DNA from: Planctomycetota bacterium
GTDB lineage: Bacteria; Planctomycetota; UBA1135; UBA2386
NCBI GenBank assembly: GCA_965223545.1
Contig: OZ245006.1
Span: forward strand, 4,896,001 to 4,960,000
Length of the DNA: 64,000 nt
Direction: 5' to 3'
A program made the position numbers and the translations under genes. Shown here in pieces: positions 1 through 56,422 of the stretch; the first letter of the stretch is position 1, and each line of letters opens with the position of its first letter. The notes under the pieces are model-generated. The model was not told where the DNA came from and did no database searches. It worked only from the letters and a program-made list of their open reading frames with translations.

Positions 1-1236
1 TTCAGCAGTGCTTGTGGAGCTCCGGCCAACCCGCTCGACATCGACGCGTTCTCGGTCGGTCTCGACCAGATCCCGGTCGACGCCACGACCCAGTTCGTCG
101 CGGTCGAGGCGGATCGCTGGTACGCGCTCTTGTTCAACGTGGGCGCGACGCCGACGGCCTCCGGTGTCGTTGCCGGTGAGAGCCTGCAGCCGCCGCCGAA
201 GACCGGCGCGGACGGCGATTTGTTCGCCCACGTCTTCGATGGGAGCAGCTTGGATCCGCGCTGGGTCAACACCGTCGAGCGCGCCCTCGACGCGGCCGAG
301 CTCGTGCCCCCGGCCGGGGGGATCGACGTGGACGCGACCGACGCGCACCTGCCGCTGTATGCGCTCGATGCCCACCTCTACAGCAAGCTGCCGGCGTTCG
401 CGCGCCTCGCGCCGACGTTCTACTTCTCCGTCGCGCCGGCGTCGGTCGCCGATGTGCCATCGTGCTGGTGGACCGGCACGTCCGTCGCTGATCGAACCGC
501 GGGTGCGATCTTCAGCACTCGGTGGACGGGCAGTGGCTGGGTTACGCCGACGGTATTCTTGACCCCATCGCGACTCGGCATCGGATCGTCCGCCGACGTC
601 ATTGGTCTGTCGATCGACCGTGCGCGCGGCTTCGTCGTGTTCTCACTGGTCGCATCCGTCAGCCGCAGCGACCCGCTGATGTTCTTCGACCTGGCGTCTT
701 CGCCTGGGACCTACGCGGTGGTCTTTCAGTACTCGACGCCGACCGAGGGTGCCGCCAAGCCCGTGTCTTGCGGCGCAGGAGTCGGTGGCAACGACGACGT
801 CGAAGGGATATGCATCACCGATCCGGGGCCGGCGCAGTCGTCCTCGGGCTACGGCGGCCTCGCGTTTGGTTCACCGCTGCCGCCTTGCGCGAGCTGGCCG
901 TTTGCGATGACCATGAATGCGACGGTGTTTCGCGATGGCGCCGGCGGGCCGGTGCTGCGCACCCTTGCGCGCGGCATCGTGCCGTCGAGCCCGGGCGTGC
1001 TCCTACTCGGCGTCTCCAACCAACTGGAGCTGAGCAAACGCAGCGCGTGTGTGGTCGACCCGCGCTTCGCCCTGCTCGATGCGATCGGCGGCGCGTGTGG
1101 CGGTTGGTTCGAGATGCAGATCCCGTTGCCGGTGACCCCGACCCTGGCGGGCACGTCGGGCGTGCTGCAGTGGGCGGCTCTCAATGCCGTCGGCCAGCTC
1201 GAAGTGGCCAACGCCACCACCATCAATCTCTTTTGA
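1..1236 (+). CDS. Hypothetical, probably secreted protein (5'-truncated by window edge) with the shared C-terminal domain
   Basis: Frame is open from base 1 (FSSACGAPANPLDIDAF...) to TGA 1236. Ends IPLPVTPTLAGTSGVLQW...EVANATTINLF, matching the C-terminal motif of other secreted proteins here. Confidence 0.8.
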   Translation, partial: FSSACGAPANPLDIDAFSVGLDQIPVDATTQFVAVEADRWYALLFNVGATPTASGVVAGESLQPPPKTGADGDLFAHVFDGSSLDPRWVNTVERALDAAELVPPAGGIDVDATDAHLPLYALDAHLYSKLPAFARLAPTFYFSVAPASVADVPSCWWTGTSVADRTAGAIFSTRWTGSGWVTPTVFLTPSRLGIGSSADVIGLSIDRARGFVVFSLVASVSRSDPLMFFDLASSPGTYAVVFQYSTPTEGAAKPVSCGAGVGGNDDVEGICITDPGPAQSSSGYGGLAFGSPLPPCASWPFAMTMNATVFRDGAGGPVLRTLARGIVPSSPGVLLLGVSNQLELSKRSACVVDPRFALLDAIGGACGGWFEMQIPLPVTPTLAGTSGVLQWAALNAVGQLEVANATTINLF

Positions 1237-1245
1237 CGAGGGCTC

Positions 1246-1809
1246 TTGGGCGTGCGCTGTGGGGACTTGATCGAGCGCTGTCTGCCGCAGGTGCGCGCGC
1301 GCGTGCACCGGCAGCTGCAGGGTGACTTTCGTGCGCGTCACCCGTGGATGATGGCGGTGTTCAGCACCGGGGACGTCGTGCAGGACGTCTTGCTGGCGGT
1401 GGCGCGGGAATCCGCGGCGATGGAGTTCGAGAGTGAAGAGGAGGCCGTGCGCTACCTGTCGACCGTGGCTCGCAATCGGTTGATCGACGCCGTGCGCCAC
1501 CACGAGGCGGCGCGTCGCGATCGCCGCCGGGAGGCGCCCGCGGGCGACGCCGAGAGCCCGACTCGCCAGCGCGCGCCGGAGTCGATCGCGGGCGCGGCCG
1601 AGCAGATTGGCCTGCTGCGGGTGGCCATGGACGAGCTGCCGCCGCGCCACCGCGCGCTGCTCGACCTGCGGCTGGTGGATGGTCTGCCGTTCCCGCAGAT
1701 CGCGCGCGACCTGGGCTACTCCTCGGCGGAGACCGCGCGGCAGGCGTTCGTCGAAGCCCAGGCCAAGCTGCTGCTCAAGCTGCGCGCGCGCGGAGTGCGC
1801 CCGGGCTGA
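1246..1809 (+). CDS. ECF-type RNA polymerase sigma factor
   Basis: Region 2 (GDVVQDVLL...YLSTVARNRLID) and region 4 HTH (MDELPPRHRALLDLRLVDGLPFPQIARDLG). Start uncertain. Confidence 0.85.
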   Translation: MGVRCGDLIERCLPQVRARVHRQLQGDFRARHPWMMAVFSTGDVVQDVLLAVARESAAMEFESEEEAVRYLSTVARNRLIDAVRHHEAARRDRRREAPAGDAESPTRQRAPESIAGAAEQIGLLRVAMDELPPRHRALLDLRLVDGLPFPQIARDLGYSSAETARQAFVEAQAKLLLKLRARGVRPG

Positions 1810-1829
1810 CACCGCTTGGCAAAGCGGGT

Positions 1830-4812: not shown

Positions 4813-4910
4813 GCGCCGAACATAGCTCGGCGGTCGCCGGGCGGCGAGTCGACGTGGCTCCGCGCGGCGCCGTGCGGTAGCGTGGCGGCGGTTCTGCCCA
4901 GGATTCGCGA

Positions 4911-7067: not shown

Positions 7068-7073
7068 GAGGCC

Positions 7074-19680: not shown

Positions 19681-21039
19681 ATGACGGCGAACGACGACAG
19701 CAGACGAGCTGCCCAGGCGGTGGCCACCGGCGAGTGGCTGCGCATCGCGGTGATGGGCTTCGTGCTCGCGATCGTCGTGTTCGTCGTGTTCTTCTACCGC
19801 CCCTCGGTGTCGACCGTCGGCCAGACTTCGGCGGTGGAGCAGGTCTGGGACGCGACCCCGGTGCCCGAGCTCGACCCAGCGCTCGTCGCCGAAATCGGCG
19901 ACGACAGTCGGGCGCGGCGCCTGCAGCTCGAAGACGCCCCGCTCGAGCATCTGCTGTCCAAGGCGCTGGAAGTGACCCCGTCGGTCGCGCGCAAGCTCGG
20001 CATGCCCGAGCACGCGGTGCCGATCGCGGAGCTGCGCGCGTCGCCGGGCCAGTACCGAGCCCAGTACCTCTGGTACAAGGGAGAGCTGGAGTACCTGTCC
20101 AACGCCAAGCCTCACCCCAAGCGGGGCTTCCAGCGCTACGACGGCCGCCTGCGGCTGGCGAATGACGAGCGCGTCTTGTTCTCGGTGGCGACGCTGCCGC
20201 AGCCCGAGCCGGTGGTCGGCGACTGGGTCCGCATGGAGGGCTTCTTCATGAAGCTGCGCGACACCCATCTGCCCGTCGAGTTGGATCGGGCACCGGTATT
20301 GGTCGGTCCCGAGCTGTACCGCGCCTACGCGGATTGGGACGCGGTGGAGGCGTTGGATGTCGAGGTGCTCGCGCGCGTCGACGACGATCTCGAGCACGGC
20401 TTCGACGTCAGCCGCAGGCTCGACGAATCCCAGGACGAGCCGCTCTGGCACTTGGCGAGCTACGCGATCCACCGCGCCGGCGAGCGTTCCTCCGAGTGGT
20501 GGCAGCGCATCGCTCCGTTCAACACCAAGGACCAGTTCGACGCGATCCGTTCCGGCGAGGTCCCGGCCGGCACGCCGATGCGGATTCTCGGCACTTTCAT
20601 CCAGGCGCGCGTCCAGCCGGCGGAGGTCAACCCGCTCGGCATCGAGTCCTGGACCGAGGCGTGGGTGCAGATCAGGGATCTCGGCGGCAAGACCGTGCCG
20701 GTCTGGTTGCCGCGCCGGCTCGATGCGTCGTGGCGCCGCAACCACTCGGCGGTGGTGCACGGCTACTTCTTCAAGCGCTACTCCTACGAAGCGTTGAGCG
20801 GCGACGTCCGCTGGACGCCGCTGTTCGTCGCCGCCGATCTCGAGCGGTTCGAGCTGCGCGGTGACGCGCTGAGCAACCCGATCACGAAGTCGTTCGCCGC
20901 GCTGGTCGGCGCGGTGGTGCTGATCTTCTTCTTCATGGCGCGCCGGGATCGGCAGCAGCGCGCGCTGCACGAGGCCGAGCTGGCCGGCCGCCGGCGCAAG
21001 CGTCGCGAGCGCGCGGTCGGCGCCGCCGCGGTGCGGTGA
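19681..21039 (+). CDS. Hypothetical membrane protein with N- and C-terminal TM helices and a large extracytoplasmic region
   Basis: TM segments IAVMGFVLAIVVFVVFFY and FAALVGAVVLIFFFM. Strong coding bias. Stop overlaps the aroB start. Confidence 0.8.
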   Translation: MTANDDSRRAAQAVATGEWLRIAVMGFVLAIVVFVVFFYRPSVSTVGQTSAVEQVWDATPVPELDPALVAEIGDDSRARRLQLEDAPLEHLLSKALEVTPSVARKLGMPEHAVPIAELRASPGQYRAQYLWYKGELEYLSNAKPHPKRGFQRYDGRLRLANDERVLFSVATLPQPEPVVGDWVRMEGFFMKLRDTHLPVELDRAPVLVGPELYRAYADWDAVEALDVEVLARVDDDLEHGFDVSRRLDESQDEPLWHLASYAIHRAGERSSEWWQRIAPFNTKDQFDAIRSGEVPAGTPMRILGTFIQARVQPAEVNPLGIESWTEAWVQIRDLGGKTVPVWLPRRLDASWRRNHSAVVHGYFFKRYSYEALSGDVRWTPLFVAADLERFELRGDALSNPITKSFAALVGAVVLIFFFMARRDRQQRALHEAELAGRRRKRRERAVGAAAVR

Positions 21040-30504: not shown

Positions 30505-33444
30505 ATGTCGTCTCACCTCTGCAGGGTTCTTGGTTTTGTGCTGTTGCTGTCCGTCGTTTCTGCGCAGCAACCATCGGTTTTGCTCGATGTGAACGCAACG
30601 CCGCTTCCCAACCCCGGCTCCGCCGCTCGTGATTTTGCCAGCAGGCGGCCGCTGACTCTGTTCAGTGCCGCCTCGCCGGCGGGACGCGAGCTGATGGGGA
30701 CGTTCGGCACGGCGGGTTCGTCCTTTTTGGTGAAGGACATCCGGAGCGGGTTGGTGCAAACTTCTTCCGACCCGCAGTCGGTCACGGCGACCGACGCCGA
30801 CTGGTTCTTTACGGCTGATGATGGCGTCTACGGCCGTGAGCTCTGGGCCAGCGACGGGACTGCCGGGGAGACTCGGATGGTCGTCGACCTCGGGCCTGGT
30901 GACAGCCTTGCGGGGGCGGAGCTCGTCGCGTTCGGTCGCCGCGTGTTTTTCGTCGCGCCCGATCCGGCGTTGCCGGCGGCGGGGAGTCGGTTGTGGATCT
31001 CGGACGGCACCGCTGTCGGTACTGGCGTGGTCGCTGCTCTGCCGGCTGAAGTTGCGCGTCCCGTGATTGTCGGAGGCTTTGCTGTGTGCACGATCGGCCA
31101 GGGCAGCAGCCAAGAGCTGTGGCGCACCGACGGCTCCGCAGTCGGCACGCAGCGGATCGCCGGACTCCCGCGCAGGTCCTCCATCAGCAGGCTGGGGCCG
31201 GCCCTTGGCGGATTCGTGTACTTCGCCCACGAATCCGCGAATCTGGAGCCGGAGCTGTGGCGCACGGATGGGACCATCGCGGGGACACAGCGAGTCATGG
31301 GGTTCGGTCCCGCGGTGGGCGCCCTTCAGGTTGTGGCCTCCGGAAACCGGCTGTTCTGCTTGGCCGGCACGCTTCTGTACGTCTCCGACGGCACGGCGAC
31401 GGGAACGGTGCTGGTCGGGTCCTACATCCGAGTGCACGTGCTCATCCCGTTCGGCAACGACCTCGTAATCGGCTCCGCATCGGGCACCCATTTCACCGAT
31501 GGCACGGCGGGAGGAAGCATCACCTTGTCGACTACGACCGCGTCGGCTGGCCTCGAGGTCGCGGGTCGCGTCGTGTTCGCAGCCGAAACACCGACCATCG
31601 GTTCCGAGCTGTGGGTCACCGACGGTACGCCCACGGGCACGGGGCTGCTGGCCGACATTTGGCCAGGATCGGAGTCGTCACTGCCGTCATCGGCGGAGTT
31701 CGCCCTCGATGGCAGCGGTCAACGTGCCCTGTTTGCCGCGGACAACGGCGTCGACGGTGAAGAGCTGTGGGCAACCGACGGGACCGCCAGCGGTACTCAC
31801 TTGGTCGACGACCTGTTGCCCAGGCCGCCTGGTTCGCTCGGCTCCAACCCACGTGACTTCACCGACCTGTACAGCGTCACTCTTTTTCGGGCGACGACCG
31901 CTGCCCATGGCGAAGAGCTTTGGCGCACCGACGGGACCGCGGCGGGCACCGCGATCGTCGCGGATATCGTGCCAGGGCCACGGGGATCGTCGCCGCTTGG
32001 CGCTTCGACTATGCAACGCGCGGGCGGCCTGGTTCTGTTCGCCGCAGGCGATCCCACGACCGGAACGGAGCCCTGGGTCACCGACGGATCGCCCGCGGGT
32101 ACTCGGCTCTTGCTCGACATCGAGCGGGGTTCTGGCAGCTCCTGGCCGAGCTCCGTCGCCGCGCTCGGCAACACCTTCGTGTTCGCCGCGACCGCGAGTG
32201 CGACAGGTACCGAACTGTGGTTCAGCGATGGGGCAGTCACGACCCTGGCCGACTTGTGGGTCGGGTCTCTGTCCTCCAACCCCGCGCACATCACGGCGGC
32301 CAGCGACTACGCCGTTTTCTCCGCTCGAACGCCGGGATCGGGGAGCGAGCTGTGGCGCACCGACGGCACGCCGGCTGGCACGCGGCTACTGGCCGACCTG
32401 CGCGCTGGCTCGAGCGGCTCCGGGCCGCATTCCATGATCCCGCTCGGTCATCGGGTGTTCTTCGCAACCTCCGCGCCGGCGGCGCTCTGGGTAACGGACG
32501 GGAGTACGCAGGGAACGCAGCTTTTGTCCGCGGGTGCACCGACGATGCTCGGAGCTCTCGATGATGCAGTGTTGTTCAGCCGCTGGGACAGCGCAACGGG
32601 CACCGAGCTGTGGCGATCCGACGGCACGCTGCAGGGAACTCGTCTCCTGCTCGACATAGAGCCCGGCCCGCTCTCCTCGTTCCCCGGTGTCGCTTGGGGC
32701 TTCCCGCCCTTTGCCGGAATGTCGGTTCGCGCGGGTAGTCGCGCCTATTTCTATGCCAACCAGGGCGCTGGCGGTCGCGAACTCTGGTCCACGGACGGTA
32801 CGGCGCGCGGGACCAGGCCGGTCGCCGACTTGGTCCCCTCGTTGGCACTCCGTCACTACGACGTCGCCGCGGTAGGTTCGCGCCACGTCGTGTTTCGCAC
32901 CCAATCTCCCGTCGGCCCGCAGGAGATCTGGTGGTCCGACGGCAGTGCGCAAGGAACTCGATTGCTGGGTTCGTTCTCCCGCGCAGGAGTCGACCTGGGC
33001 TTTGCCGGCGGCCAAGTCGTGTTCGCGGCCTCCGGGCCCAACGCACTCGGGAGTGAGCCCTGGGTTCTGGACCCCGGCGCGCTCGCGCGGAACTTGGGAG
33101 GCGGCTGCGGCGCGTGGCTTCGGGTGGACGACCCGGTTCTTGGCCAGACCGCCCAAGTACGTGGTGGCGCAGTTCCCGGCAGCGCTGGCGTGGTCTTGCT
33201 GTCGGCGCAAGTCCGACCAGTTTCGCTCCAACCGGCACCATGCACCCTGTTCCTGGGCGCGGCCTCCATGGCTGCCTTCGCCGCAGTGCAGGTGCCCCGT
33301 GGCGTATGGTCGACGTCCATGCGGATCCCCGCTACTCCGGCGCTCAACGGACTCCCGGTCGCGGTGCAAGCGGTCTTTGGCCCAGGCAGCAGCGGTCGCG
33401 GCGTGGGCCTCACCAATGGGGCGTGGTTGTGGCTCGGCCTCTGA
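30505..33444 (+). CDS. Secreted ELWxxDGT-repeat (beta-propeller) protein with the shared C-terminal domain
   Basis: Signal peptide, more than 10 ELW[RVAS][TS]DGT..GT repeats, C-terminus IPATPALNGLPVAVQ...LTNGAWLWLGL. Confidence 0.92.
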   Translation: MSSHLCRVLGFVLLLSVVSAQQPSVLLDVNATPLPNPGSAARDFASRRPLTLFSAASPAGRELMGTFGTAGSSFLVKDIRSGLVQTSSDPQSVTATDADWFFTADDGVYGRELWASDGTAGETRMVVDLGPGDSLAGAELVAFGRRVFFVAPDPALPAAGSRLWISDGTAVGTGVVAALPAEVARPVIVGGFAVCTIGQGSSQELWRTDGSAVGTQRIAGLPRRSSISRLGPALGGFVYFAHESANLEPELWRTDGTIAGTQRVMGFGPAVGALQVVASGNRLFCLAGTLLYVSDGTATGTVLVGSYIRVHVLIPFGNDLVIGSASGTHFTDGTAGGSITLSTTTASAGLEVAGRVVFAAETPTIGSELWVTDGTPTGTGLLADIWPGSESSLPSSAEFALDGSGQRALFAADNGVDGEELWATDGTASGTHLVDDLLPRPPGSLGSNPRDFTDLYSVTLFRATTAAHGEELWRTDGTAAGTAIVADIVPGPRGSSPLGASTMQRAGGLVLFAAGDPTTGTEPWVTDGSPAGTRLLLDIERGSGSSWPSSVAALGNTFVFAATASATGTELWFSDGAVTTLADLWVGSLSSNPAHITAASDYAVFSARTPGSGSELWRTDGTPAGTRLLADLRAGSSGSGPHSMIPLGHRVFFATSAPAALWVTDGSTQGTQLLSAGAPTMLGALDDAVLFSRWDSATGTELWRSDGTLQGTRLLLDIEPGPLSSFPGVAWGFPPFAGMSVRAGSRAYFYANQGAGGRELWSTDGTARGTRPVADLVPSLALRHYDVAAVGSRHVVFRTQSPVGPQEIWWSDGSAQGTRLLGSFSRAGVDLGFAGGQVVFAASGPNALGSEPWVLDPGALARNLGGGCGAWLRVDDPVLGQTAQVRGGAVPGSAGVVLLSAQVRPVSLQPAPCTLFLGAASMAAFAAVQVPRGVWSTSMRIPATPALNGLPVAVQAVFGPGSSGRGVGLTNGAWLWLGL

Positions 33445-33669: not shown

Positions 33670-35613
33670 ATGCACCGTCGCTCATTCCTAGCTCTGGTCA
33701 TTTCGTCCGCCGTGTTGGTTCCCGCCGCGCGCGCGCAAACCACCGATGTCGTCGGCACCGTGTCCGGCTGGGTCAACACCGATCTCTTGCCCACCGCGGC
33801 GCCGGTGCTGATCCCGCTTGCCGGAGTCGAAGTCCGCGTCGACGGAGGCGCGGTCAGTTACACCGATCCGAGCGGCGCTTTCCGCATACCGCACCCGAGT
33901 GCCGCCCCGGTGACGGTGCACGTGCGGCTGGCCGGCCGCCGCGTCGGGGCGATCGCGTCGGCGCAATCGGCGAGCTACGCGGCCGCGGTCGCGGCGACTC
34001 CCGGAGTGCCGGTCGCGGTCACCGTGTTTGGGCCGTCCGCCACCGGCTTCGAGTTGGCGCAGTCGACGTGCTACTGGGGTATCCACAGCGTGCACGAGTG
34101 GGTGCGCTCGGTGCTCGGCGACCTCCCCGAGTTGGATGTGCTCGACGCGGTGACGGCGATGGTCAACATCGGCGGCGTCTGCGGGGCCACTCACTTCGAG
34201 AACACGCTGCAGTTTCGCGTCGGCTCTGGCTGTGCCAACGCCGCCTACAGCACGGTGATCGCGCACGAATGGGGACACGCATTGGACCTCGCGTTCGGCG
34301 GCACCTCGCGCACTCAAGGTCTGTCGGAGGGCAGCGCCGACATCGTTGCCGCATTCTGGAGTGGTCAGCCGATCATCGGGCACGACTTCTCGGGCCCCGG
34401 GCAGCATGCCAGCACGGTGGCCAACAACGCGACCTACCCGCCGTCGGGGTCCACGCACCAGCAGGGGCAGGTCTGGAGCGGCTTCTGTTGGGACGTGCGC
34501 GAGGGCCTGCGCGCCGCGCTCGGCGCGGTGGCCGGGACGGCGCAGGCCGAGCGCATCGTGTTGGCGGCGATGGTGGCCAACGCCGACGACCAGCCGGCGG
34601 CCGTGCGGGCGGTGTTCGAAGCCGACGACGACGACGGCAACCTCGCCAACGGCACCCCGAACTACGCGGTGCTGGCGGCCGCGGCACAGAAGCGCAACTT
34701 GCCCTACCCCCTGCTCGGCGGAGCGATGCCCGGCAGCTTCGCCGGCTTCGGTGCCGGCTGTGCCGGCACTGGCACCGGAGATCCGCTGGTGCAGATCTGC
34801 CACGCTCCCAACCCGAGCGGCACGCTCGTTGGTCAGTTCGACGACCGGCAGTACGCCGTCGCGATCGATGTGCCGTTGCCGCAGTTTCTGTTGTTGACTG
34901 GCGTCGAGCTACAGACCGCCGCGGGAACGGGCGCGCCGCTGGTCATCTCGGTCGCCGTGCACCAGGACGCCGGTGGCGTCCCTGCGCCCTTTCCCGACCG
35001 GGTCGGCGCGGCGCGGGTCGGCACGACGGAGGGGCTGTACCAAGCGCGTTTCGAGCCACTCGCCGCTCCCGGTGGGCAGCGGCTGTGGGTCGTGTTCGGC
35101 GACGATCGCGTGCTGCGCCCCGAGCTCACCGCGGGGATCGCCGTGCCACATCGTTGGCGGCCGCTGGGCTCCACGACCTGGACCACGGGGTCTGCACCAT
35201 GGGCGGTGCAGGCGTCGTGCTACGAGTTCAACCAGCCGGGAGTGCCGCAGCTGACGACGATCGGCCTGCCCGAGCTCGGCCGCACCTTCGACATCGAGCT
35301 GTCGTTCGCTCAGCGCCGCGCGCCCGCGGTGTTGATGCTCGGCGGCTCCAACACCGTGTTCGGCCCGACCGCCTTGCCCTTCGACCTGACCGGTGCCGGT
35401 GCGCCTGGCTGCGCGGTCTTGGTCGCTCCGGAGCTCACTCTTTCGAGCCCCGCGTCCTCGACCGGGACGGCACGCCAAGCGATCGCGGTACCCGCCGTCT
35501 CGTCGCTGGCGGGACTCTCGTTCTTCGCGCAGTGGCTCGTCACCGACCCGGGCGCCAACCCCCTCGGCGTCGCCCTGTCGAACGCCGGCACCGCAATCAT
35601 CGGCTGGCCGTAG
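33670..35613 (+). CDS. Secreted M4/M36-like zinc metallopeptidase with the shared C-terminal domain
   Basis: Signal peptide, TVIAHEWGH...GLSEGSAD gluzincin motif, ADDDDGNLANGTPN, C-terminus VPAVSSLAGLSFFAQW...NPLGVALSNAGTAIIG. Confidence 0.85.
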   Translation: MHRRSFLALVISSAVLVPAARAQTTDVVGTVSGWVNTDLLPTAAPVLIPLAGVEVRVDGGAVSYTDPSGAFRIPHPSAAPVTVHVRLAGRRVGAIASAQSASYAAAVAATPGVPVAVTVFGPSATGFELAQSTCYWGIHSVHEWVRSVLGDLPELDVLDAVTAMVNIGGVCGATHFENTLQFRVGSGCANAAYSTVIAHEWGHALDLAFGGTSRTQGLSEGSADIVAAFWSGQPIIGHDFSGPGQHASTVANNATYPPSGSTHQQGQVWSGFCWDVREGLRAALGAVAGTAQAERIVLAAMVANADDQPAAVRAVFEADDDDGNLANGTPNYAVLAAAAQKRNLPYPLLGGAMPGSFAGFGAGCAGTGTGDPLVQICHAPNPSGTLVGQFDDRQYAVAIDVPLPQFLLLTGVELQTAAGTGAPLVISVAVHQDAGGVPAPFPDRVGAARVGTTEGLYQARFEPLAAPGGQRLWVVFGDDRVLRPELTAGIAVPHRWRPLGSTTWTTGSAPWAVQASCYEFNQPGVPQLTTIGLPELGRTFDIELSFAQRRAPAVLMLGGSNTVFGPTALPFDLTGAGAPGCAVLVAPELTLSSPASSTGTARQAIAVPAVSSLAGLSFFAQWLVTDPGANPLGVALSNAGTAIIGWP

Positions 35614-37886: not shown

Positions 37887-38957
37887 GACTCTTCAGGAGA
37901 GCAGGCAGCGCGCTGAAGGAAGCGTCCGGTGAGTTTCGCGGATGTGCGACCGCGACCTCTACGCGACGATTCTCGGCCTCACGGCGCCTTGGAGAGTGAC
38001 TGATGTTGAGCTCGATGCAAAGCTCGAGTTGGTGGCTGTGAGCGTTGAGGCCGAAGGTCGCTCTGCGCTGGTGTGCCCGGAGTTGGCGAATCGCGCCCTG
38101 GCTACGACACGCGGCAGCGGCGTTGGCGCCACCTCGACACCTGCCAGTACCAGGCCTCCTCGTGGCTCAGGTCCCGCGCATCAACACGACCGCTGTAGCC
38201 CGGCGCCTCGGGCTAACCTGGGACGAGGTGGATGGGATCATGCAGCGCGCGGTGGCTCGCGGCCTGGCTCGACGAGAGCCGCGTGTGTTGCGCGCGGTGG
38301 GCGCCGACGAGACCTCGTTCCAGAATCGCCACGAGTATGTGACGGTCGTCACGGACCTGGACAGCTCGAACGTGGTGTATGTCGCCGACGACCGCAAGAC
38401 GAGCTCGCCCGACGGCTTCTACGCCACGTTGACACATGACTAGCTCGATGCGATCAGATCGTCGCGATGGACATGTGGAAGGGCTACATCTCGTCGACGC
38501 GCAAGCACGTGCCCGCTGCCGACGAGAAGATCTGCTTCGATCGGTTCCACGTCGCGAAGGCGCTGGGTGACGCGCTCGACATCCTGCGTCGTCTCCGTTT
38601 GAGGATAGCGCGTGCGTGGCCCATCAAAGAGGCGGCGGCCAAGCCGTGGCACTACGTGCGTCGAGGCTGGGCCGAGAAGGCGTGGAGGAAGTGGATCGGC
38701 TGGGCGATGCGCAGCCGGATCGAGCCGATCGAGCGCGCCGCCGGCACGATTCGCAACCACCTCTGGGGCATCGTGAACGCCGTCGCGCTGGCGTCATCGA
38801 CGCCACCGCCGAGTCCATCAATGCGAAGATCCAACGCGTGAAGGCGGCCGCGTGCGGGTTCCGCAACCGCGAGCGTTTCGGGGCCGCGATCATGTTCCAC
38901 CTCGGAGGCCTCGACCTCTATCCCGCCTCAGTTATCCACACGAAAGCCTGGAGCGCC
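37887..38957 (+). pseudogene. Decayed ISL3-family element (transposase pseudogene with frameshifts and internal deletions)
   Basis: ISL3 segments spread over different frames: LYATILGLTAPWRVTDV, WRHLDTCQY, VGADETSFQ, MDMWKGYI...FDRFHV, ESINAKIQRVK..ACGFRN. In-frame stop near 38441. Degenerate GGCTCTTCAGG-type ends at 37887-37897 and 38947-38957. Confidence 0.85.
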
Positions 38958-38991: not shown

Positions 38992-41988
38992 CTATCCGCG
39001 GAAATCGACGGCAACCCGATCGACTTGGATTTGCTGCGTGAACGTTCGATCGAACAGAATGACAAACCTGTAGGCGTTGCCGCGATCAGCGTTCAGGCTG
39101 GCCGTTGGGCCGCCGACGTATTGCCGCCAGGGTCCGATGCTGGCCGGGTCGACAACGCCGGTCGCCGGGTCGAGCGTGGCAGCTTGCACGAAGAAATGGA
39201 CACTGCCGCGGTTTGCCAGCTGACCACACGTAGGGTCGTCGCTCAGCGCGTACTTGACTCCATTCACGGTGGCGTCCACGCGATAGCGGATCCACTCCGC
39301 GACCGGAAGCGCCCGGCCAGTCCAATACCAATTGGACTGGCACGCCACCTGAACGTCGATCTCGGCCAACGTCCCGATGCTGTTTGCCGACGCCGCCGGG
39401 ATCGCGGTGCCGACGACTGAAATCGGTGGGCTGGGTTGCGGCACCTCGACTCGCACCAGTCCGGCTGCGCCATCGCCGCCTTGGATCGTGGCCAGATAGA
39501 CGATTTGGTCGTCGAACAAGCCGCCGGCGCCACCGCTCGTGTCGATCAAGCCAGCCAACGAGGCGGTGCCGCCCGTCTGAACCAGCACGCTACCACCCGA
39601 GCCGCCTCCGCCCGTGGCGACCGGGGGACTGCCGAGCGGTCCCCTCCCACCGTCGCTACCCTTGGCCTCGATCGCGCCACCGAGTGACATGCCGACCCTG
39701 TGGCCACAGCGCAAGGTGAAAGCGCCTCCGCCGCCTCCGCCGGCAGCCCCGGGTTTCCACACCGGAGGAGTGCCGCGTAGCGAGAAGTGCGGGTGTGAGC
39801 CGCCGCCTCCGCCGCCAGAGCCACCGATGACGAAGTGCTCACTTGAGAGCGTGCCTGCCGGAACCGGGTGTGCGTTGAAGGCAACTCCACCGGCACCATC
39901 GGGGCCTACTTCGCCCGAACCGCTGAACACGGCGCGCCCGTTGGCACCTGCGACATCAAACCCACCGCCACCGCCGCCCGCGGCGATCTGGCCGGAGAAC
40001 TGTCCCGCCTGGATCGCATACGTGACCGAGCTGTCCAAGCCGTCGGTGGGAAACTGGTGGGAGCCGCGTCCCCCGGTTGTCGGGGCACGTCCCACGTACG
40101 CGTGACGGGCGGGGAGGACGACGTCGGCGCCGGGCTGGCCATCGAACGCCGCGGTGTGACCCTGTCCGCTTCCCGCCCGGGCTCCGCTCCCTCCACGCGC
40201 TCCTCCCGGTCCACTCCCTCCGCCGGCTTGACCGGCCGAGGCGCCACTCGCCACCGGTACCGGTGGCGCGTTGAGCTCGACTCGGCCGTCGATCTGTGCT
40301 TGTCCCCGCACCAGAACCCGCACCGGGTTGCTACCGACGAAGCGCACCGTGATGCCAGTCGGCACGTCGAAGCGAGCGAACTCGAAGTTGCCGTCAGTGA
40401 CCGTGATGTCCTGACCGGTCAGCGTGCGGGCGCCGGGAATCGTCTGTCGATCGGTGCTCCATTCGTACACCGCGGCGCCGGGAGTGCTGCTCACCAGAGC
40501 GCCGTCCGATGGGACGAAGGCGCCCAGCAGCCCGCTTCCACCGATGGTGCCTGGCAGCGCGGCCCCGCCGATCCATGCTCCCGAAGAGGCCGCTCGGTCG
40601 AGGTTGCCCTCGTCGTCGAACTCCTCGACCAGAGTTGTCAATACGGGGTTTTTGATCACGGTCTTGACTCCGTTGGTCGTGACGACACCGGCAGGATTGG
40701 CAAGCGGTTCGAAGATCACGAGCTGATCGAACACAGCGGCACCGGCGAGGGCCGGGTTGGCAGGTACGTTTTGCGTGAGAGTGATGCGGGATCCCGTGAT
40801 CGACGCGAACGGGGTTACCAGGTCGCCGCTGACCAGAAGCGTGCAGCCGGGTGCGCCGATTGGGTCGAGCGAGAACGGCAAGGGCACGGAACCCCAGGTC
40901 TGGTCCGAGCCGCCCGCAAGCCAAGCCCCGATGCGCGGAGCCGGGAGGTTGTCGCCGATGATGGTTCGAGGTTGGCCCGGGGTCGCCGTGCTCGCTGACA
41001 GCAGGGGCCGTGGTGGCGATCCACATGCGCTGCCGAAAGTGGCAGTCGTCGAGGTGCCACTTGTCCAAGTTTCGCTCGTGGTTCCAAGAGGCGGTGCTCC
41101 GGAGAATGCCACGGCATAACCCGCGCTGAACTGGGCCATCCCCTTGCCCCGATTCCCCGCGTGTAGAGGCCACCCCGCCGCCCAGTTCGTGCCGTCCCAC
41201 TCCCAGTCGAAGAGGTTGGTCGCGCCGGTCAAGACGATCCGTTGGCGAACGGGCGAGTACGCCATCGCCAATCCCCCGACGGCTCCCGGTCCGCGCCGAG
41301 TCGGAACCATCTGCGTCCACGTGACGCCGTCCCACTCCCAGGTATCCGAGAGTACCGTGCCACCTGATTCGCCGCCATGCAGCACGACGCGGCGTCTGAT
41401 GGGGTCGTACGCCATCGCGTGGTTGTATCGCGGCGGCGGGGATTGGGCCGGAGTCTGCGGGTTCCAGGTCTCGGCCTGCCAAGTCCAGGTGTCACCCAAG
41501 GACATCCCAAGCGCAGTGTTGCCGCCAAACAGCACGAGTTCGCCGCGGCTTTGGTCCCAAGTCACGGCCGCCCGTTCGCGCTTTGGCATGACGGACGATG
41601 AGAATCGACTTGTCGTCGGTCGCCAGGCGCCCGACTTGAATACCCAAAGGTCTCCGAGAAGGCCGCTTCCGTTGCTTCCGCCAACCATGAAGACAGAAGT
41701 TGGGCTGGCCGCCATGGCGTGACGCCTGCGCGCAGCAGGCGCGGGGTTGGTCGACGGGGTCACCAGGCTCCAGTGGTTGCCATCCCAGATCCACGTGTCG
41801 GCAAGCCAACTGGTCGTGTTCGCGCCACCGAAGAGGACGCCGAACCCGAGGCCCGGGTGGCCGGCCATGGCGTAGTCGTCTCGAATCGAAGGCGCGACGG
41901 GCGTTGCCGCTGGCACCCAACGCGGTTGTGCGCTGAGTGCCGTTGAGGCTGCGGCGAGGAACAGGGCGGCAAAGAACGGCGATCGCAC
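38992..41988 (-). CDS. Secreted Kelch-repeat protein with the internal shared domain and a Gly-rich C-terminal module (paralog 1)
   Basis: Signal peptide ending LSA-Q, LFGG...DTW.WDG repeats, GAPGC.LLV...VPANPALAG...NPAGVVTTNG, GGGGGG stretches, ends VDRVAVDFRG. GTG start estimated. Confidence 0.85.
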   Translation of the reverse strand: MRSPFFAALFLAAASTALSAQPRWVPAATPVAPSIRDDYAMAGHPGLGFGVLFGGANTTSWLADTWIWDGNHWSLVTPSTNPAPAARRRHAMAASPTSVFMVGGSNGSGLLGDLWVFKSGAWRPTTSRFSSSVMPKRERAAVTWDQSRGELVLFGGNTALGMSLGDTWTWQAETWNPQTPAQSPPPRYNHAMAYDPIRRRVVLHGGESGGTVLSDTWEWDGVTWTQMVPTRRGPGAVGGLAMAYSPVRQRIVLTGATNLFDWEWDGTNWAAGWPLHAGNRGKGMAQFSAGYAVAFSGAPPLGTTSETWTSGTSTTATFGSACGSPPRPLLSASTATPGQPRTIIGDNLPAPRIGAWLAGGSDQTWGSVPLPFSLDPIGAPGCTLLVSGDLVTPFASITGSRITLTQNVPANPALAGAAVFDQLVIFEPLANPAGVVTTNGVKTVIKNPVLTTLVEEFDDEGNLDRAASSGAWIGGAALPGTIGGSGLLGAFVPSDGALVSSTPGAAVYEWSTDRQTIPGARTLTGQDITVTDGNFEFARFDVPTGITVRFVGSNPVRVLVRGQAQIDGRVELNAPPVPVASGASAGQAGGGSGPGGARGGSGARAGSGQGHTAAFDGQPGADVVLPARHAYVGRAPTTGGRGSHQFPTDGLDSSVTYAIQAGQFSGQIAAGGGGGGFDVAGANGRAVFSGSGEVGPDGAGGVAFNAHPVPAGTLSSEHFVIGGSGGGGGGSHPHFSLRGTPPVWKPGAAGGGGGGAFTLRCGHRVGMSLGGAIEAKGSDGGRGPLGSPPVATGGGGSGGSVLVQTGGTASLAGLIDTSGGAGGLFDDQIVYLATIQGGDGAAGLVRVEVPQPSPPISVVGTAIPAASANSIGTLAEIDVQVACQSNWYWTGRALPVAEWIRYRVDATVNGVKYALSDDPTCGQLANRGSVHFFVQAATLDPATGVVDPASIGPWRQYVGGPTASLNADRGNAYRFVILFDRTFTQQIQVDRVAVDFRG

Positions 41989-42097
41989 GAATGGCAAGAG
42001 GGCTCTCCTCGGCTGCGGAGCCGCGGAACTCGGGGCACCAGTCGATACGGCCGGGATGGGGCGGAGTAAACGCCTGGACCGGCTTCCTTGCTCGGTC

Positions 42098-45082
42098 CTA
42101 CCCGCGGAAGTCCACGGCAACCCGGTCGACCTGCACCTGCTGCGCAACTGCACGATCGAACAGGATGACGAACCGGTAGGCGTTGCCACCATCACTCTGC
42201 AGGCTGGCCGCCGCACCTCCGACGCGTTGCCGCCAAGGCCCCATGCTCGACGGATCGACGATCCCCGTCGCTGGGTCGATCGTCGCCGCCTGGACGAACA
42301 ATCCCACCGCCCCGCTGGCGAGGCTGCCGAGTGCCGGGTCATCGCTGAACGTGACCTGCTGCCCGTTGATGGTCGCGTCCATTCGATACCGGACCCACTC
42401 CGTGACCGGCAACGCGCGGCCGGTCCAGTACCAACTGGATTGGCACGCGACCTGGCTGTCGGTCTCGGCCAACGTGCCGACGCTGAGTAACGACCCTACC
42501 GGGATCGCTACGCCGGCGACCGAAATCGGTGGGTTGGGTTGCGGCACCTCGACTCGCGCCAGTCCGGCTGCGCCATCGCCGCCCTGGATCGTGGCCAGAT
42601 AGATGCTCCGCTCATCGAACAAGCCGCCGGTGCCACCACGCGTGTTGATCAAGCCGGCCATCGTGGCAAGCCCGCCCGTCTGCACCAGCACGCTACCGCC
42701 CGATCCGCCTCCGCCGGTTGCGTGCGGTGGCGCGGCAAGCTGGCCGCTGCCGCCGTCGCCGCCTTTGGCTTCGATCAAGCTGCCGGGGGCCATGTTGACT
42801 TCATGGCCGCAGCGCAAGACGAGCGTGCCTCCGCCGCCCCCACCGGCTGCGCCGGCGCGCCATACCGGGGGAGTGCCGAGCAACGAGAAGTGCGGGTGCG
42901 AGCCGCCGCCCCCGCCACCGGAGCCGCCGATGGCGAAGTGCTCACTGGAGAGCGAGCCCGGCGGAAGTGGATGCGGACTGAACGCCACTCCCTCGATTCC
43001 ATCGGGTCCAAGTTCGCCGGAACCGCTGAACACTGCACGCCCCCTGGTGCCGCGTGAGCCAAAACCGCCGCCCCCGCCACCCGCGGCGGTCTGGCCGCAG
43101 AACTGCGCGGCGTGGATCGCGTAGGTGACCGAGCTGTTCAGGCCGTCCGCGGGGAACTGTTGTGAGCCGCGCCCACCGGTGGTCGCGGCGCGCGCCGCGT
43201 AGGCGTGCCCGGCTGGTAGCGCGACGTCGCCGCCGGGGCGGCCGTTGAACGCAGCGGTATGGCCCAGGCCCGACCCGGCGTCGGCGCCGCTGCCGCCGCT
43301 GGCTCCACCCGGTCCACCCACTCCGCCAACCTGGCCGAGTGGGGGGGCGACCCGGCTGATCAACGGCACCGGCGGCGCGTTGAGCTCGACGCGGCCCTCG
43401 ATGTGCGCGCGCCCACGAACCGAGATGCGCGCGCGGTTGCTGCCCACGAACCGCACGGTAACTCCCGCCGCCACATCGAAGCGCGAGAAGTCGAACACCC
43501 CGTCGGTGACCGTGATGTCCCGACCGGTCAGTGTGCGGACGCCGGGAATGGTCTGTTGATCCGTGCTCCACTCGTACACCATCGCGCCCGGGATGCTGCT
43601 CACCAGCACACCGTCGCTCGGGTCGAAGGGGCCGAGTCGGCCGTTGCCGCCGATGACCCCGGGGACCGCGGCTCCACCGACCCACGATCCCGAAGAAGCC
43701 GCGCGGTCCAGGTTCGTCTCGTTGTCGAACTCTTCCACCAGACTCGTCAGGACTGGACCCTCGATCACGCTCTTGACCCCGTTGGTCGTGACGATGCCGG
43801 CCGGGTTCGCCAGTGGGTCGAAGACCACCACTTGGTCGAACACCGCGGCGCCCACTAGCGCCGGGTTGGCGGGTACCAGCTGCATGAAGGTAAGGCGGCC
43901 TCCGAGGAGGCTGTAGAACGGGGTCACCAAGTCGCCGCTCACGAGGAGCTCACAGCCTGGTGCGCCCAACGCTGTCAGCGACGCGGGCAGCGGCACCGCC
44001 CCCCACTGCTGATCCGAGCCACCCACCAACCAGACGGCGCCGCGCATGGCGGGGAAATCGTCGACAGTGACAGCCCTCGGTTGACCGAGGCGGGCGGCGC
44101 CGGCGACCAGCGTTGGTTGAGGCCCCGGTCCGCACGGGCTACCGAACAGCGTCGTCGTCGGAATACCGCTGACCCATGTGTCGCCGGTCGCGCTCGCGCT
44201 CGGCAGGCCGGCGAACAGCACGCCGTGGCTGGCGCTGATCTGGGCGATTCCCTTGCCGCGTGTCGAGGCCGTGGACGGCCAACCGGGCGCCCAGTCCGAC
44301 CCGTCCCATTCCCAGTCGAAGAGACTGCGCGTGCCGGCCAGAATGACTCTCTGCCGCGCGGGCGAGTACGTCATCACGAGCCGGCCTTGTCCGAACGGAA
44401 AGCGGGTGGATCGAACCTGCGTCCATTGGACTCCGTCCCACTCCCAGGTGTCCTGCAGCGTGAGGCCGTTGGAGTCGCCACCGAACATCACCACGCGGCG
44501 CCGCACTGGGTCGTAGGCCATAGCGTGGTCTTCCCTCGCTGCAGGAAGCGGTCCCGTGGAGTGCCGGGTCCAGGTGCCGGCTTTCCAGGTCCACGTGTCG
44601 TTTCCGACCAGGCTGCCGCCGAATCGGCCGCCGAAGAGCACCAGCTCACCGCGACGCTCGTCCCAGGCCATTGCCGACAGCTCGCGTGCGGCCGGTCCCG
44701 GCGCGGGTTGCGCGGGTTGCCAAACGCCGGCGCGAAACTCCCAGAGGTCGCCGAGCTTGCCGGTGCCGTTGCTCCCACCAAACAGAAAGACGGTTTGGTC
44801 GTTGGCTGCCATTGCATGGCTCCCGCGTGGCGTGGGGCCGACACTCGCGGTTTGGCTCCACTGGCTGCCATCCCAGATCCAGGTGTCCGCCAACCAGCCG
44901 TTGGCGTCCGCTCCGCCGAACAAGACCCCGATGCCGAGCCCGGGATGGCCCGCCATCGCGTAGTTGCCGCGAATTGGAGGTGCTACGGGCGTTGGCGCGG
45001 GCGACCACACCCACAACGGTTGGCCGGCCAGCGCCGCCGAGAACACGCTCGCAAAGAAAACGGAGAGACAGGACGGTCTCAT
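42098..45082 (-). CDS. Secreted Kelch-repeat protein with the internal shared domain and a Gly-rich C-terminal module (paralog 2)
   Basis: Colinear with paralog 1 over its whole length, with the same terminal VDRVAVDFRG. ATG 45082 (MRPSCLSVFF...LAG-Q). Confidence 0.88.
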   Translation of the reverse strand: MRPSCLSVFFASVFSAALAGQPLWVWSPAPTPVAPPIRGNYAMAGHPGLGIGVLFGGADANGWLADTWIWDGSQWSQTASVGPTPRGSHAMAANDQTVFLFGGSNGTGKLGDLWEFRAGVWQPAQPAPGPAARELSAMAWDERRGELVLFGGRFGGSLVGNDTWTWKAGTWTRHSTGPLPAAREDHAMAYDPVRRRVVMFGGDSNGLTLQDTWEWDGVQWTQVRSTRFPFGQGRLVMTYSPARQRVILAGTRSLFDWEWDGSDWAPGWPSTASTRGKGIAQISASHGVLFAGLPSASATGDTWVSGIPTTTLFGSPCGPGPQPTLVAGAARLGQPRAVTVDDFPAMRGAVWLVGGSDQQWGAVPLPASLTALGAPGCELLVSGDLVTPFYSLLGGRLTFMQLVPANPALVGAAVFDQVVVFDPLANPAGIVTTNGVKSVIEGPVLTSLVEEFDNETNLDRAASSGSWVGGAAVPGVIGGNGRLGPFDPSDGVLVSSIPGAMVYEWSTDQQTIPGVRTLTGRDITVTDGVFDFSRFDVAAGVTVRFVGSNRARISVRGRAHIEGRVELNAPPVPLISRVAPPLGQVGGVGGPGGASGGSGADAGSGLGHTAAFNGRPGGDVALPAGHAYAARAATTGGRGSQQFPADGLNSSVTYAIHAAQFCGQTAAGGGGGGFGSRGTRGRAVFSGSGELGPDGIEGVAFSPHPLPPGSLSSEHFAIGGSGGGGGGSHPHFSLLGTPPVWRAGAAGGGGGGTLVLRCGHEVNMAPGSLIEAKGGDGGSGQLAAPPHATGGGGSGGSVLVQTGGLATMAGLINTRGGTGGLFDERSIYLATIQGGDGAAGLARVEVPQPNPPISVAGVAIPVGSLLSVGTLAETDSQVACQSSWYWTGRALPVTEWVRYRMDATINGQQVTFSDDPALGSLASGAVGLFVQAATIDPATGIVDPSSMGPWRQRVGGAAASLQSDGGNAYRFVILFDRAVAQQVQVDRVAVDFRG

Positions 45083-49934: not shown

Positions 49935-49980
49935 ACGCGCTGGGACGCGGCGAGCCCGTCGTCTACCATCCGTCGCTGCG

Positions 49981-51270: not shown

Positions 51271-51287
51271 CGGCCGGGTCGGCGCCG

Positions 51288-51977: not shown

Positions 51978-51990
51978 GGTGCGGTCTCAT

Positions 51991-53001: not shown

Positions 53002-53389
53002 GGCGGGCGTGGGGTCGGGTGCGAGGGAAGCTCAGCGCGGCCACGGCCGCAACCAAACTCGGATGCCGTTCTCGCCGGAGCGGGTTGCAAGGTCTGACAC
53101 ATCCGCCGCCGCGCTGAGCGCAGACGCCAGTGTTGCTTCTCCGCGTCCGGGAGTTGTGGTATGGAACTCGTGACGATAACCGGCCTTCGGAAGTGTTGTA
53201 GCCGCTCGACGATTCGAGGCGCCGGAGGCTTGGCACGCTCGGCGCTGGCGCGCCGCGCGTCAATAGGGCGGAGTCGAAACCGCGGCGCCGCGACTTCGGC
53301 GCAGCGCGGCGTTGGTGCGCGACGCCGGCGGCGGCACAATCGGGCGCGTCCCTCCCTCCCGTTTCGCACCCTCACGGGGCCGGTCCGCG

Positions 53390-54589: not shown

Positions 54590-54618
54590 GCCGGCCGCGC
54601 GCCGCTCGCGCGCGATCG

Positions 54619-54978
54619 CTACTTGGCGGGCACGTTGAGTGCCAGCACCTTGGCCTCGGTGCCCTTCGAGAACTCGTCCTTACAGTGCGGCGAGCACAGG
54701 TGCAGCGTGTAGCCCTCGTACTCGAGCGCGTTCTCGGCCTTGCCGTCCATACCGAGCGCGCAGTTGGCGCAGCGGCCGACCGTCTGGTCCTCGGTGCCGT
54801 CGAGGGCGTCGGCCTTGGCGAGGATGGCGCCGACCGGACTCGGCACTTCGCCACTGGCGGCGGGCTGCGAGGCGGGGGCCGGATCCGGTGCCGGAGCGCC
54901 GCTCTCGGTCTCCGGTGAGCAGGCGGCCAGCGCGAGGGCACCGGCCAAAGGGAGGGCGAGGAGGGTGTTGAATCGCAT
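54619..54978 (-). CDS. Small lipoprotein with a YHS/TRASH-like Cys motif
   Basis: Lipobox LAAC, then CANCALGM...YEGYTLHLCSPHCKDEF. Confidence 0.75.
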   Translation of the reverse strand: MRFNTLLALPLAGALALAACSPETESGAPAPDPAPASQPAASGEVPSPVGAILAKADALDGTEDQTVGRCANCALGMDGKAENALEYEGYTLHLCSPHCKDEFSKGTEAKVLALNVPAK

Positions 54979-55069
54979 CGTTCGTGGTCTCGGGTGCAGG
55001 TCGGTGGGCATCGCAGTCATAGCGTGGTGGCCACGTCCCGTCCAACCGCCTGGTAGACTGCGCGGGCCT

Positions 55070-56422
55070 GTGACTGTCGCGCGATTCAATTCCCGGTGCC
55101 GCCGTGTGCAGCTGGCACCGGTGCTGCTGGTGGGTGCCTTGGTCGTGCCGCTGGCAGCGCCACTGGCGGCGCAGGACGCGCCGCGGCGCTGCGGTACGCG
55201 GCCGACGGCGGCGCGCGCCGCCGCGTCGTTGCCGCCGACGGGTGCCGCTCGGCTGCACACCGGTGCCCAGGACTGCTCCGATGCGATCACCCGACCGCTC
55301 GAGCGCTACCGCCCCGGCCCGCGCTTTCGCATCCCGGTGGTCGTGCACGTGATCTCGGCCACCAACGGGAGCGGCAGTCTGCCCGATGCCCGCATCCACA
55401 GTCAGGTGCGCGTGCTCAACGAGGACTTCGGCGCGCTGCCCGGAAGTCCGGGGGCGCTCGGCGCCGACTCCGGCCTGGAGTTCTACTTGGCGCGCGTCGA
55501 CCCCGCCGGCAACCCGACCAGCGGCATCACCCGCTCGGTCAACAACACGTGGTTCGCCGACGCGGGCGCCTACTACGACAGCCTGGCCTGGGACCCGTCG
55601 CGCTACCTCAACATCTACACCAACAACATCGGCAGCTTCGGCATTCTCGGCTACGTGCCCGCGCTGCCGGCCAGCGGCGGCCTGGTCGGCGCGAACGAGG
55701 ACCGCGTAGTGGTCCACTACGACGTGTTCGGCGTCAACCCGCTGGCATCGCCGTTCGGCGCCGGCCGGACCGCGACGCACGAGATCGGCCACTACTTGGG
55801 CCTGTTCCACCCGCACGACTTCGGCTGCGGCACCGCGGCGTGCTACACGAGTGGCGATCGCATCTGCGATACGCCGCCGCAGGCCGTGTTCGCCAGTGGC
55901 TGCCCGGCGAGCGGCACCTCGTGTGGCACGCCGGACCCGGTGCGCAACTACATGGGCTATGTCGACGACCTCTGCATGTGGGAGTTCACGCCGGAGCAAG
56001 TCCGCCGCATGCGCTGCACGCTCGAGCACTGGCGCTCGCAGCTGTTGACCGGCAGCGCGCTGGCGCGCCCGCGCAGCGAGGGCAACCCGTCGAGCTTCAC
56101 GGCGCAAGCGCCGGTGCTCGGCGGCGTGATGGCGCTCACCGTCGACCCATCGGTCACCGGCCACGGCTCTGCCGCGGTCTTCGCCTACGCGGCACCGGCC
56201 TCGGCGCCGTGGTTGGGCTATCAGCTGTTGGTCGACGTGACCGCGCCGCCGGGTGAGCTGTTGGGGCTGCCGCCGGGAACCGGTGCTCCTCTGCAGTGGA
56301 CTTTTGCGATCCCGAACGTGCCCGTGCTGGTCGGGGTCACGATGTTCGCCCAAGCGGCGCACTTCGGCCTTGCCCCGGGCGTCGCGCTGAGCAACGCGCA
56401 GGATCTGACGATCGGCTACTGA
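55070..56422 (+). CDS. Secreted M43 (pappalysin/ulilysin-like) zinc metalloprotease with the shared C-terminal domain
   Basis: RRCGT cysteine switch, IPVVVHVI, WDPSRYLNIY, GRTATHEIGHYLGLFH, ICDTP, NYMGY Met-turn. Ends IPNVPVLVG..MFAQ...LSNAQDLTIGY. Start at 55070 or 55106. Confidence 0.9.
   Translation: MTVARFNSRCRRVQLAPVLLVGALVVPLAAPLAAQDAPRRCGTRPTAARAAASLPPTGAARLHTGAQDCSDAITRPLERYRPGPRFRIPVVVHVISATNGSGSLPDARIHSQVRVLNEDFGALPGSPGALGADSGLEFYLARVDPAGNPTSGITRSVNNTWFADAGAYYDSLAWDPSRYLNIYTNNIGSFGILGYVPALPASGGLVGANEDRVVVHYDVFGVNPLASPFGAGRTATHEIGHYLGLFHPHDFGCGTAACYTSGDRICDTPPQAVFASGCPASGTSCGTPDPVRNYMGYVDDLCMWEFTPEQVRRMRCTLEHWRSQLLTGSALARPRSEGNPSSFTAQAPVLGGVMALTVDPSVTGHGSAAVFAYAAPASAPWLGYQLLVDVTAPPGELLGLPPGTGAPLQWTFAIPNVPVLVGVTMFAQAAHFGLAPGVALSNAQDLTIGY

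Follow-up and report, generated by a model that had tools for sequence, protein, structure and literature searches.

The window analyzed here, a stretch of 64,000 nt from a Planctomycetota bacterium (GCA_965223545.1, contig OZ245006.1, positions 4,896,001 to 4,960,000), encodes a set of exported proteins that share one domain of ~130 residues. This domain is uncatalogued, lineage-restricted within the sampled phylum, apolar, always present as a single copy, and carried by ~7% of the genes of its genome. A preliminary description had proposed six copies in the window, and all six were found in frame at those places with offsets of no more than ~20 nt (Table 1). The cargo consists of ELWxxDGT repeats, Kelch, an M43 protease, a motif-defined HExxH peptidase and one protein of unknown family; the earlier label "M4/M36-like" for the HExxH peptidase (carrier C) agrees with its motif HEWGH...GLSEG, but a Pfam scan gave no M4/M36 match. 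The cargo of the six proteins, described as unrelated, is indeed mixed, except that the Kelch carriers D and E are tandem paralogs (67.5% identity over 982 aa), which leaves five independent architectures. Sec leaders were present on the full-length carriers, as had been claimed, and also on open reading frame (ORF) A, whose gene begins 230 nt before the first position of the window; signal peptides, here and below, were called by eye and with a permissive rule of our own, without SignalP. In carrier C, the Cys-bearing arm and the core of the domain are split by a 153-aa insert. The C-terminal domain of a seventh carrier lies beyond the window.

Alignment of the six copies revealed invariant P, L-G, Q, G and N residues. 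In leave-one-out tests with hidden Markov models (HMMs), each compared with the best of ~500 shuffles, five copies scored above the shuffles: B (22.3 vs 9.3 bits), C (50.7 vs 12.3), D (32.6 vs 6.8), E (31.9 vs 11.5) and F (16.7 vs 10.6). The proposed check that the copies align significantly therefore held for B to F and failed for copy A (ORF 1-1236), which scored 8.9 bits, under its best shuffle of 10.0. The genome-wide model gave copy A an independent E-value (iE) of 1e-7, but copy A belonged to the seed of that model. Judged by its sequence, copy A is the weakest and most divergent of the six members and is accepted on the genome-wide model only.

Table 1. Carriers and copies of the shared domain in the window
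Feature	Position	Strand	Evidence
Carrier A: 3' part of 488-aa exported protein, unknown family, Sec-type leader	1..1236	+	
Domain copy A, C-terminal, most divergent	829..1233	+	genome-wide HMM, iE 1e-7
Carrier B: ELWxxDGT repeat protein, 979 aa, leader end VVSA/Q	30505..33444	+	TIGR04534, 15 stretches
Domain copy B, C-terminal	33070..33441	+	HMM
Carrier C: gluzincin-like peptidase, HExxH at 34264, 647 aa, leader end ARA/Q	33670..35613	+	family by motif only
Copy C, N-terminal arm bearing Cys	34732..34773	+	sequence
Copy C core, C-terminal	35233..35607	+	HMM
Carrier D: Kelch propeller, domain and ~550-aa Gly-rich C-terminal region	38992..42000	-	
Carrier D start	TTG 42000, or GTG three codons on	-	inferred
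Domain copy D, internal, the copy folded (pLDDT 96.9)	40648..41049	-	
Carrier E: tandem paralog of carrier D, 994 aa	42098..45082	-	
Domain copy E, internal	43757..44158	-	HMM
Carrier F: M43 metalloprotease, HEIGH at 55778, leader end LAA/Q	55070..56422	+	Pfam
Carrier F start	GTG 55070 or 55106	+	
Domain copy F, C-terminal, without Cys	56054..56419	+	HMM
Seventh carrier, start portion	63757..64000	+	HMM, iE 1e-8

Family size, fold and distribution

In the genome holding the window (G000; 8.1 Mb, 69.7% GC, 91% complete), iterated HMMs matched 322 of 69,420 stop-to-stop ORFs, with 288 matches ending no more than 10 residues before the stop, and matched no reversed-sequence decoy. On our own gene calls (5,690 genes) a cut-off of E<0.001 gave 411 carriers and E<0.01 gave 415, again with 0 reversed decoys; ~10 further degenerate copies are recognizable by eye. 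Median pairwise identity between copies is 25%. Among the 415 copies, 348 are terminal on long proteins and ~90% are C-terminal overall, while 26 lie on short proteins (~13 consisting by eye of leader and domain only, the others being fragments or miscalled starts) and 41 are not terminal (25 with a tail of 21-70 aa, 9 N-terminal and 7 internal). The permissive signal-peptide rule was satisfied by 350 of 407 carriers versus 1,556 of 3,669 other genes, and the genome-wide count that had been suggested as a check thus gave both C-terminal and signal-peptide enrichment. The idea of a mix-and-match module on exported proteins likewise stands, as 368 cargo regions fell into 100 clusters. Pfam matches were obtained in 28 of 73 carriers scanned, to Kelch, FG-GAP, sulfatase, LamG, di-haem peroxidase, GSDH, Spondin_N, beta-lactamase-like, CotH and SBBP families.

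No known family accounts for the domain, as had been supposed: none of 84 copies matched Pfam or NCBIfam. A PDB sequence search gave a single weak match to a cytochrome bd subunit (E 0.0095), an identity that is not credible for the fold of the domain. The nearest ESM Atlas clusters were without Pfam in 30 of 30 cases, with Planctomycetota as the commonest taxon (a divergent tail scored <0.9); a profile search of a protein database gave at least 13 matches, and the labelled homologs were Planctomycetota. No description of the domain was found in the literature covered, mostly papers outside subscription and without their supplements.

The predicted fold of copy D has nine strands, is all-beta and contains no long helix (predicted local distance difference test, pLDDT, 96.9). 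Foldseek with this model gave no match at E<=0.001, and in a wider structure search the matches were generic immunoglobulin (Ig), fibronectin type III and macroglobulin domains, with a best Z of 8.4 and alignments covering ~90-96 of the 134 residues. The domain is thus predicted to be a generic Ig-like sandwich. The preliminary description had implied a disulfide-bonded beta-sandwich; the sandwich is predicted, and the Cys of the arm and the Cys of the loop are coupled far more strongly than any other pair (12.7 vs 4.5), but the pair is not universal, with both Cys in 204 copies, neither in 109 of 415 and the loop Cys alone in 10. The domain is also nearly uncharged. The median share of D/E/K/R residues is 8.0% in the domain, compared with 16.9% across 1,091 windows of cargo, of which just 1.4% reach so low a value, and with 22% for other exported proteins; D and E together make up 4.4%, conserved aromatics are few, and the consensus ends in Q-A-V-V-x-D ... 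S-N-G.

One interpretation of such a fold is a general ligand-binding or folding module (for a glycan, a lipid or a surface, or as an intramolecular chaperone), spread by domain shuffling without dedicated machinery. The generic Ig-like fold and the existence of domain-only proteins would suit it, as would weak Foldseek matches to lipid-binding proteins of the NPC2/ML type (E ~0.01-0.04, TM 0.3-0.4), all of which lie at E > 0.001; none of the 84 copies had a Pfam match to a carbohydrate-binding module or the ML family. We regard this interpretation as improbable, given the one copy per protein, whereas binding modules often repeat, the few conserved aromatics, the share of 7% of the proteome and the strict either-or relation to other anchors described below.

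We then surveyed 151 genomes of the phylum, with 28 candidates scored per genome. Matches occurred in 29 genomes and were all-or-none, as 28 of these have at least 7 matches; the 29th (G116) has one match on a ~2-kb contig and 7% contamination. In two named Planctomycetota metagenome-assembled genomes, all 150 scored candidates and 120 of 150, respectively, were positive. A genome from another family, outside the order (G146; 2.39 of ~3.33 Mb), encodes 63 carriers with one copy each, terminal in 57 of 61 complete ORFs; its consensus lacks Cys, and the charge difference was repeated there (7.3% in the domain vs 15.4% in cargo). For 86 foreign copies the figure is 6.4%. A ranking by secretin similarity places the positive genomes next to one another at its top, which makes a single clade probable.

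Several further features of the carriers and their surroundings were recorded. In 294 of 350 carriers, all six window carriers included, the residue right after the predicted signal-peptidase site is Gln, compared with 47-49 at control offsets 10 and 20 and with 557 of 1,556 other exported candidates. This pattern resembles the Q-rule, given as Bacteroidetes-specific in PMC5837995; type I glutaminyl cyclase (PF05096) was not found in G000, and the M28-type cyclase was not searched for. Ser/Thr kinase genes are often near carriers (49 of 98 lie no more than two genes away, versus 1,163 of 5,225 other genes), and extracytoplasmic function (ECF) sigma factor genes are also frequent beside carriers; carrier A itself has, by eye, a kinase-like gene on one side, upstream of the window, and on the other an ECF-like gene (1252-1809). 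The Gly-rich C-terminal regions of carriers D and E (38992-40640 and 42098-43750, minus strand) resemble by eye the ends of several large lipoproteins (e.g. G000 C1:354937 and 357581). Elsewhere in the window, 26373-27257 and 38467-38841 are probable transposase remnants (by eye), and 19681-21039 encodes a membrane-anchored protein without a Pfam match that is conserved in G146.

Tail exchange and comparison with known sorting modules

The 120 best homologs of the carrier F M43 protease were compared in their tails. This domain was found in 86 by HMM and in 3 more by eye; 28 had dockerin-like tails (20 by pattern, 8 by eye; NF041540 matched in 10 of 21 scanned), 2 had FlgD-Ig or type IX secretion system (T9SS) type A tails above the TIGR04183 cut-off, and 1 was other. 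No homolog among the 120 was seen with two tail modules. One homolog (P0041) has a fourth kind of tail, Lys- and Cys-rich and unlike all three modules. The domain is also rare on lipoproteins, occurring in 3 of 170 lipobox-like genes versus 292 of 844 non-lipoprotein leaders with Gln at +1 (paralogs in these counts are not independent, and the P value is given no weight), and near-universal on surface-type repeat proteins (ELWxxDGT 29/29, Kelch 13/13, FG-GAP 36/48). These three patterns point to a localization module.

As the preliminary description had held, the domain resembles neither the T9SS C-terminal domain (CTD) nor PEP-CTERM: none of 84 copies matched TIGR04183 or PF18962, no CTERM model matched and no long helix is present. 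The type A CTD (TIGR04183/PF18962) and FlgD-Ig tails (PF13860) are likewise Ig-like sandwiches found once per protein on many unrelated Sec-exported cargos, and the type A CTD shares the cargo classes and the slot on M43 homologs. However, that CTD has ~72 residues rather than ~130, and our domain carries a Cys pair, is nearly uncharged, and also occurs N-terminally, nested and alone. Alignment with hhalign to a TIGR04183-positive protein gave a probability of 0.1%. The domain could nevertheless act as an export signal in the manner of the T9SS, serving an unknown outer-membrane translocon of its own. It would be recognized in the periplasm and, once the cargo is exported, would usually be cut off or no longer needed. 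This would accommodate the terminal position of 348 of 415 copies on long proteins, the replacement of TIGR04183 tails on the same protease, the all-or-none genome distribution, the scarcity on lipoproteins and an Ig-like fold such as T9SS CTDs are described to have (PMC5445135). We consider it unlikely. Export of RgpB is reported to be lost with two C-terminal residues (PMC5445135), whereas the domain tolerates N-terminal, internal, nested and domain-only positions, and 41 of 415 copies lack the free C-terminus that T9SS type A CTDs need; the PxGxYVV and KxxxK motifs are missing from its last 22 residues; its charge is 8% against 21-22% in two FlgD/T9SS tails; and the only clade-restricted barrel tested, a TonB-dependent receptor, occurs in just 16 of 29 positive genomes. 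Some T9SS cargo is described as keeping its CTD (PMC5445135).

Nested copies bear on whether the domain is cut off. In a model of a protein with a tail beyond the domain, single jelly-roll domains (116-146 residues) align over residues 1-347, with Ig matches at ~185-311; since the jelly-roll spans the domain on both sides, the tail would complete the cargo fold, and cutting at the domain would remove the last strand of the cargo. The domain is predicted to be nested within the cargo fold in ~24 proteins. Together with the N-terminal and domain-only copies and the 153-residue insert in copy C, this favours a retained anchor over a cleaved tag.

Together with the "planctosome" hypothesis (PMC6461901), the GC-type dockerin-anchored proteins of Phycisphaerales (NF041540) form another close parallel; they likewise carry a lineage-specific terminal module of planctomycete exoproteins. 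In contrast to our all-beta, uncharged domain, these dockerins are short Asp-rich EF-hand-like pairs, and none of the 84 copies matched PF00404, NF041540 or the cohesin PF00963; neither T9SS CTD nor cohesin structures were among the structure matches listed. PEP-CTERM, GlyGly-CTERM and MYXO-CTERM are also many-to-one C-terminal tags, described as a short motif, a transmembrane helix and a basic tail cut by a membrane protease (10.1101/2023.06.07.544157). The domain is instead folded, without transmembrane helix or basic tail, and G000 has no exosortase.

SLH, LysM and choline-binding anchors are retained on exported proteins in flexible positions and are usually repeated. The domain shares flexible placement and, we infer, retention, but has another fold, a single copy and no known ligand. 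The likeness in position to SLH or LysM modules is one reason to consider a periplasmic tether, bound to peptidoglycan or to the outer membrane from within, that would keep cargo inside the envelope without any crossing of the outer membrane; lipoproteins largely excluding the domain, the part of the cargo that can be periplasmic and the failure to find a specific translocon would fit as well. We nonetheless find a tether quite unlikely, as typical periplasmic paralogs (most sulfatases and charged VPS10-like hydrolases; by eye) lack the domain while adhesin-type propellers nearly all carry it, and the same protease elsewhere bears a T9SS secretion tail.

Secretion machinery and a candidate partner

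No export machinery was recognized in the window, whose genes were read by eye only, in agreement with the preliminary description. G000 encodes six secretins, and genes for type II secretion system (T2SS) components D, E, F and G and three pseudopilins are clustered; a GspD-like secretin is present in all 29 positive genomes. T9SS CTDs were not found over cut-off in 5 positive genomes, although control genomes gave no match either; PorV was not found over cut-off in 5 genomes with a control that matched; SprA gave no match in the genomes tested, its controls likewise, and PorU and Gld were not searched for. Exosortase TIGR04178, which a PEP-CTERM-type tag would require in each genome, was present in 2 of 5 positive genomes, PF00404 dockerin was not found in G000, and PF00963 cohesin was found in 0 of 5 genomes, G000 included. 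The families seen beside carriers were confined to ECF sigma factors, kinases and mobile genes; transporters were not among them.

In the search for a partner, 1,964 candidate proteins, either exported or in the membrane, were compared with the available part of G146, giving 243 reciprocal matches, of which 79 were scanned (23 without Pfam) and three were profiled; with four earlier candidates, seven were tested. One of these, a 698-aa exported protein (G000 C1:699861-702086) that is helical and then beta-rich (by eye), is single-copy in G000 and had no Pfam, NCBIfam or PDB match. As a single query it matched 29/29 positive and 2/27 negative genomes, and its profile gave partial matches in 54 of 151 genomes. 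Matches close to full length (starting at model position <=64 and ending at >=364, limits set after the table was inspected) occurred in all 28 multi-copy genomes and not in G116. Of these 28 genomes, 17 have its gene no more than 14 kb from the GspD-like gene and one has it 25 kb away, while in 10 the two are on different contigs. In G000 and G146 the seryl-tRNA synthetase gene stands between the two genes, and the proximity may therefore be plain ancestral gene order. At this locus (L159; also L077:1500-3932) the gene has as neighbours serS, a gene for a rhomboid protease and the T2SS cluster, and its occurrence across genomes nearly follows that of the domain. We regard the 698-aa protein as a lead for the partner, not as a result.

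Other candidates were set aside. An operon of two secretins, ExbB, ExbD and tetratricopeptide repeat (TPR) proteins was rejected as a marker of a cognate machine because its secretin matches 149 of 151 genomes; its 966-aa TPR protein matched 6 of 151 and is too divergent to profile. At this locus (L023; G000 C1:7076990-7090901) the two secretins bracket TPR-TPR-ExbB-ExbD-ExbD beside an MreB/MamK-like actin, an order kept in four other genomes. The TonB-dependent receptor (G000 C1:4675470), with 16/29 positives and 0/27 negatives, is not obligate; the receptor is 54-62% identical across families, and its locus (L131; C1:4674301-4683600) includes ExbB/ExbD/TPR genes. A protein without Pfam match (C1:1836502) occurred in 28/29 positives but also in 19/27 negatives. 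In G000, the genes at C1:464193, 1455763 and 4223719 encode small proteins made solely of a secretin N-domain-like region. A domain-only protein failed as a universal scaffold, being found in 2 of 29 positive genomes, and this count also bears on a self-assembling lattice or filament in which domain-only proteins form a surface layer and tagged cargo co-assembles. The ~13 proteins of signal peptide and domain only (by eye) and the apolar composition would be in keeping with a lattice, but with a median identity of 25%, low for a common interface, we think it very improbable.

A predicted outer-envelope anchor

From these data we predict that the domain stays attached and keeps ~410 cargo proteins in the outer envelope, taking the role that a lipid anchor would otherwise have, a function to which we give about an even chance. 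The domain would be read as a three-dimensional surface and not as a free C-terminal peptide. The leaders suggest that the inner membrane is crossed via Sec and signal peptidase I. The domain would then fold in the periplasm, where the arm-to-loop disulfide would staple the Cys-bearing majority, as the predicted fold and the co-varying pair suggest. In the weakest step, the folded protein would cross the outer membrane, most likely by the encoded T2SS, possibly helped by the ~700-aa exported protein encoded beside it; GlyGly-CTERM and MYXO-CTERM cargo are described as depending on the T2SS, which provides a precedent (10.1101/2023.06.07.544157). Finally, the apolar domain would be retained, packing on the outer membrane or a partner there, and propellers, proteases, oxidoreductases and lectin-like domains would be displayed.

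Several observations weigh against this anchor. The low-charge surface may be buried under the arm and insertion, and the nested model is of moderate quality (pLDDT 73.9, 13 sequences). Placement at the terminus in ~90% of copies is equally expected of a terminal signal, and since the swap partners include a true export signal, the T9SS CTD, swapping cannot separate export from anchoring. Some of the cargo (di-haem peroxidase, sulfatase and pyrroloquinoline quinone-type dehydrogenase) can also be periplasmic. The GspD-like secretin occurs in 26 of 27 negative genomes too and is therefore not specific to the domain, and the 698-aa protein is near-full-length in 2 of 122 negatives, both of family f51 and tag-free on re-test. 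Because the positives look like one clade, its co-occurrence with the domain is weak evidence.

The domain marks a probable surface or secreted proteome of hundreds of proteins per genome in a large, poorly cultured planctomycete group, and a domain model would serve annotators, as Pfam and NCBIfam are without one. The either-or of this domain, the GC-type dockerin and the T9SS CTD on one protease suggests that lineages solve the same localization problem with unrelated modules. A more specific and, on present evidence, unlikely proposal is that a deep-branching, mostly uncultured clade of Planctomycetota has a surface-display system of its own, in which a folded, apolar, uncleaved tag of Ig-like type, borne by as much as 7% of the proteome, would be taken up by a dedicated ~700-aa periplasmic adaptor (the protein of G000 C1:699861-702086, encoded beside the T2SS), led through the secretin, and would then anchor cargo in the outer membrane. 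If true, this T2SS would recognize its substrates by a transferable signal the size of a domain, and the system would be the functional counterpart of the T9SS in this lineage. Substrate selection by the T2SS is a problem of long standing, and a folded tag that can be moved between proteins, paired with a candidate adaptor, would open it to direct testing.

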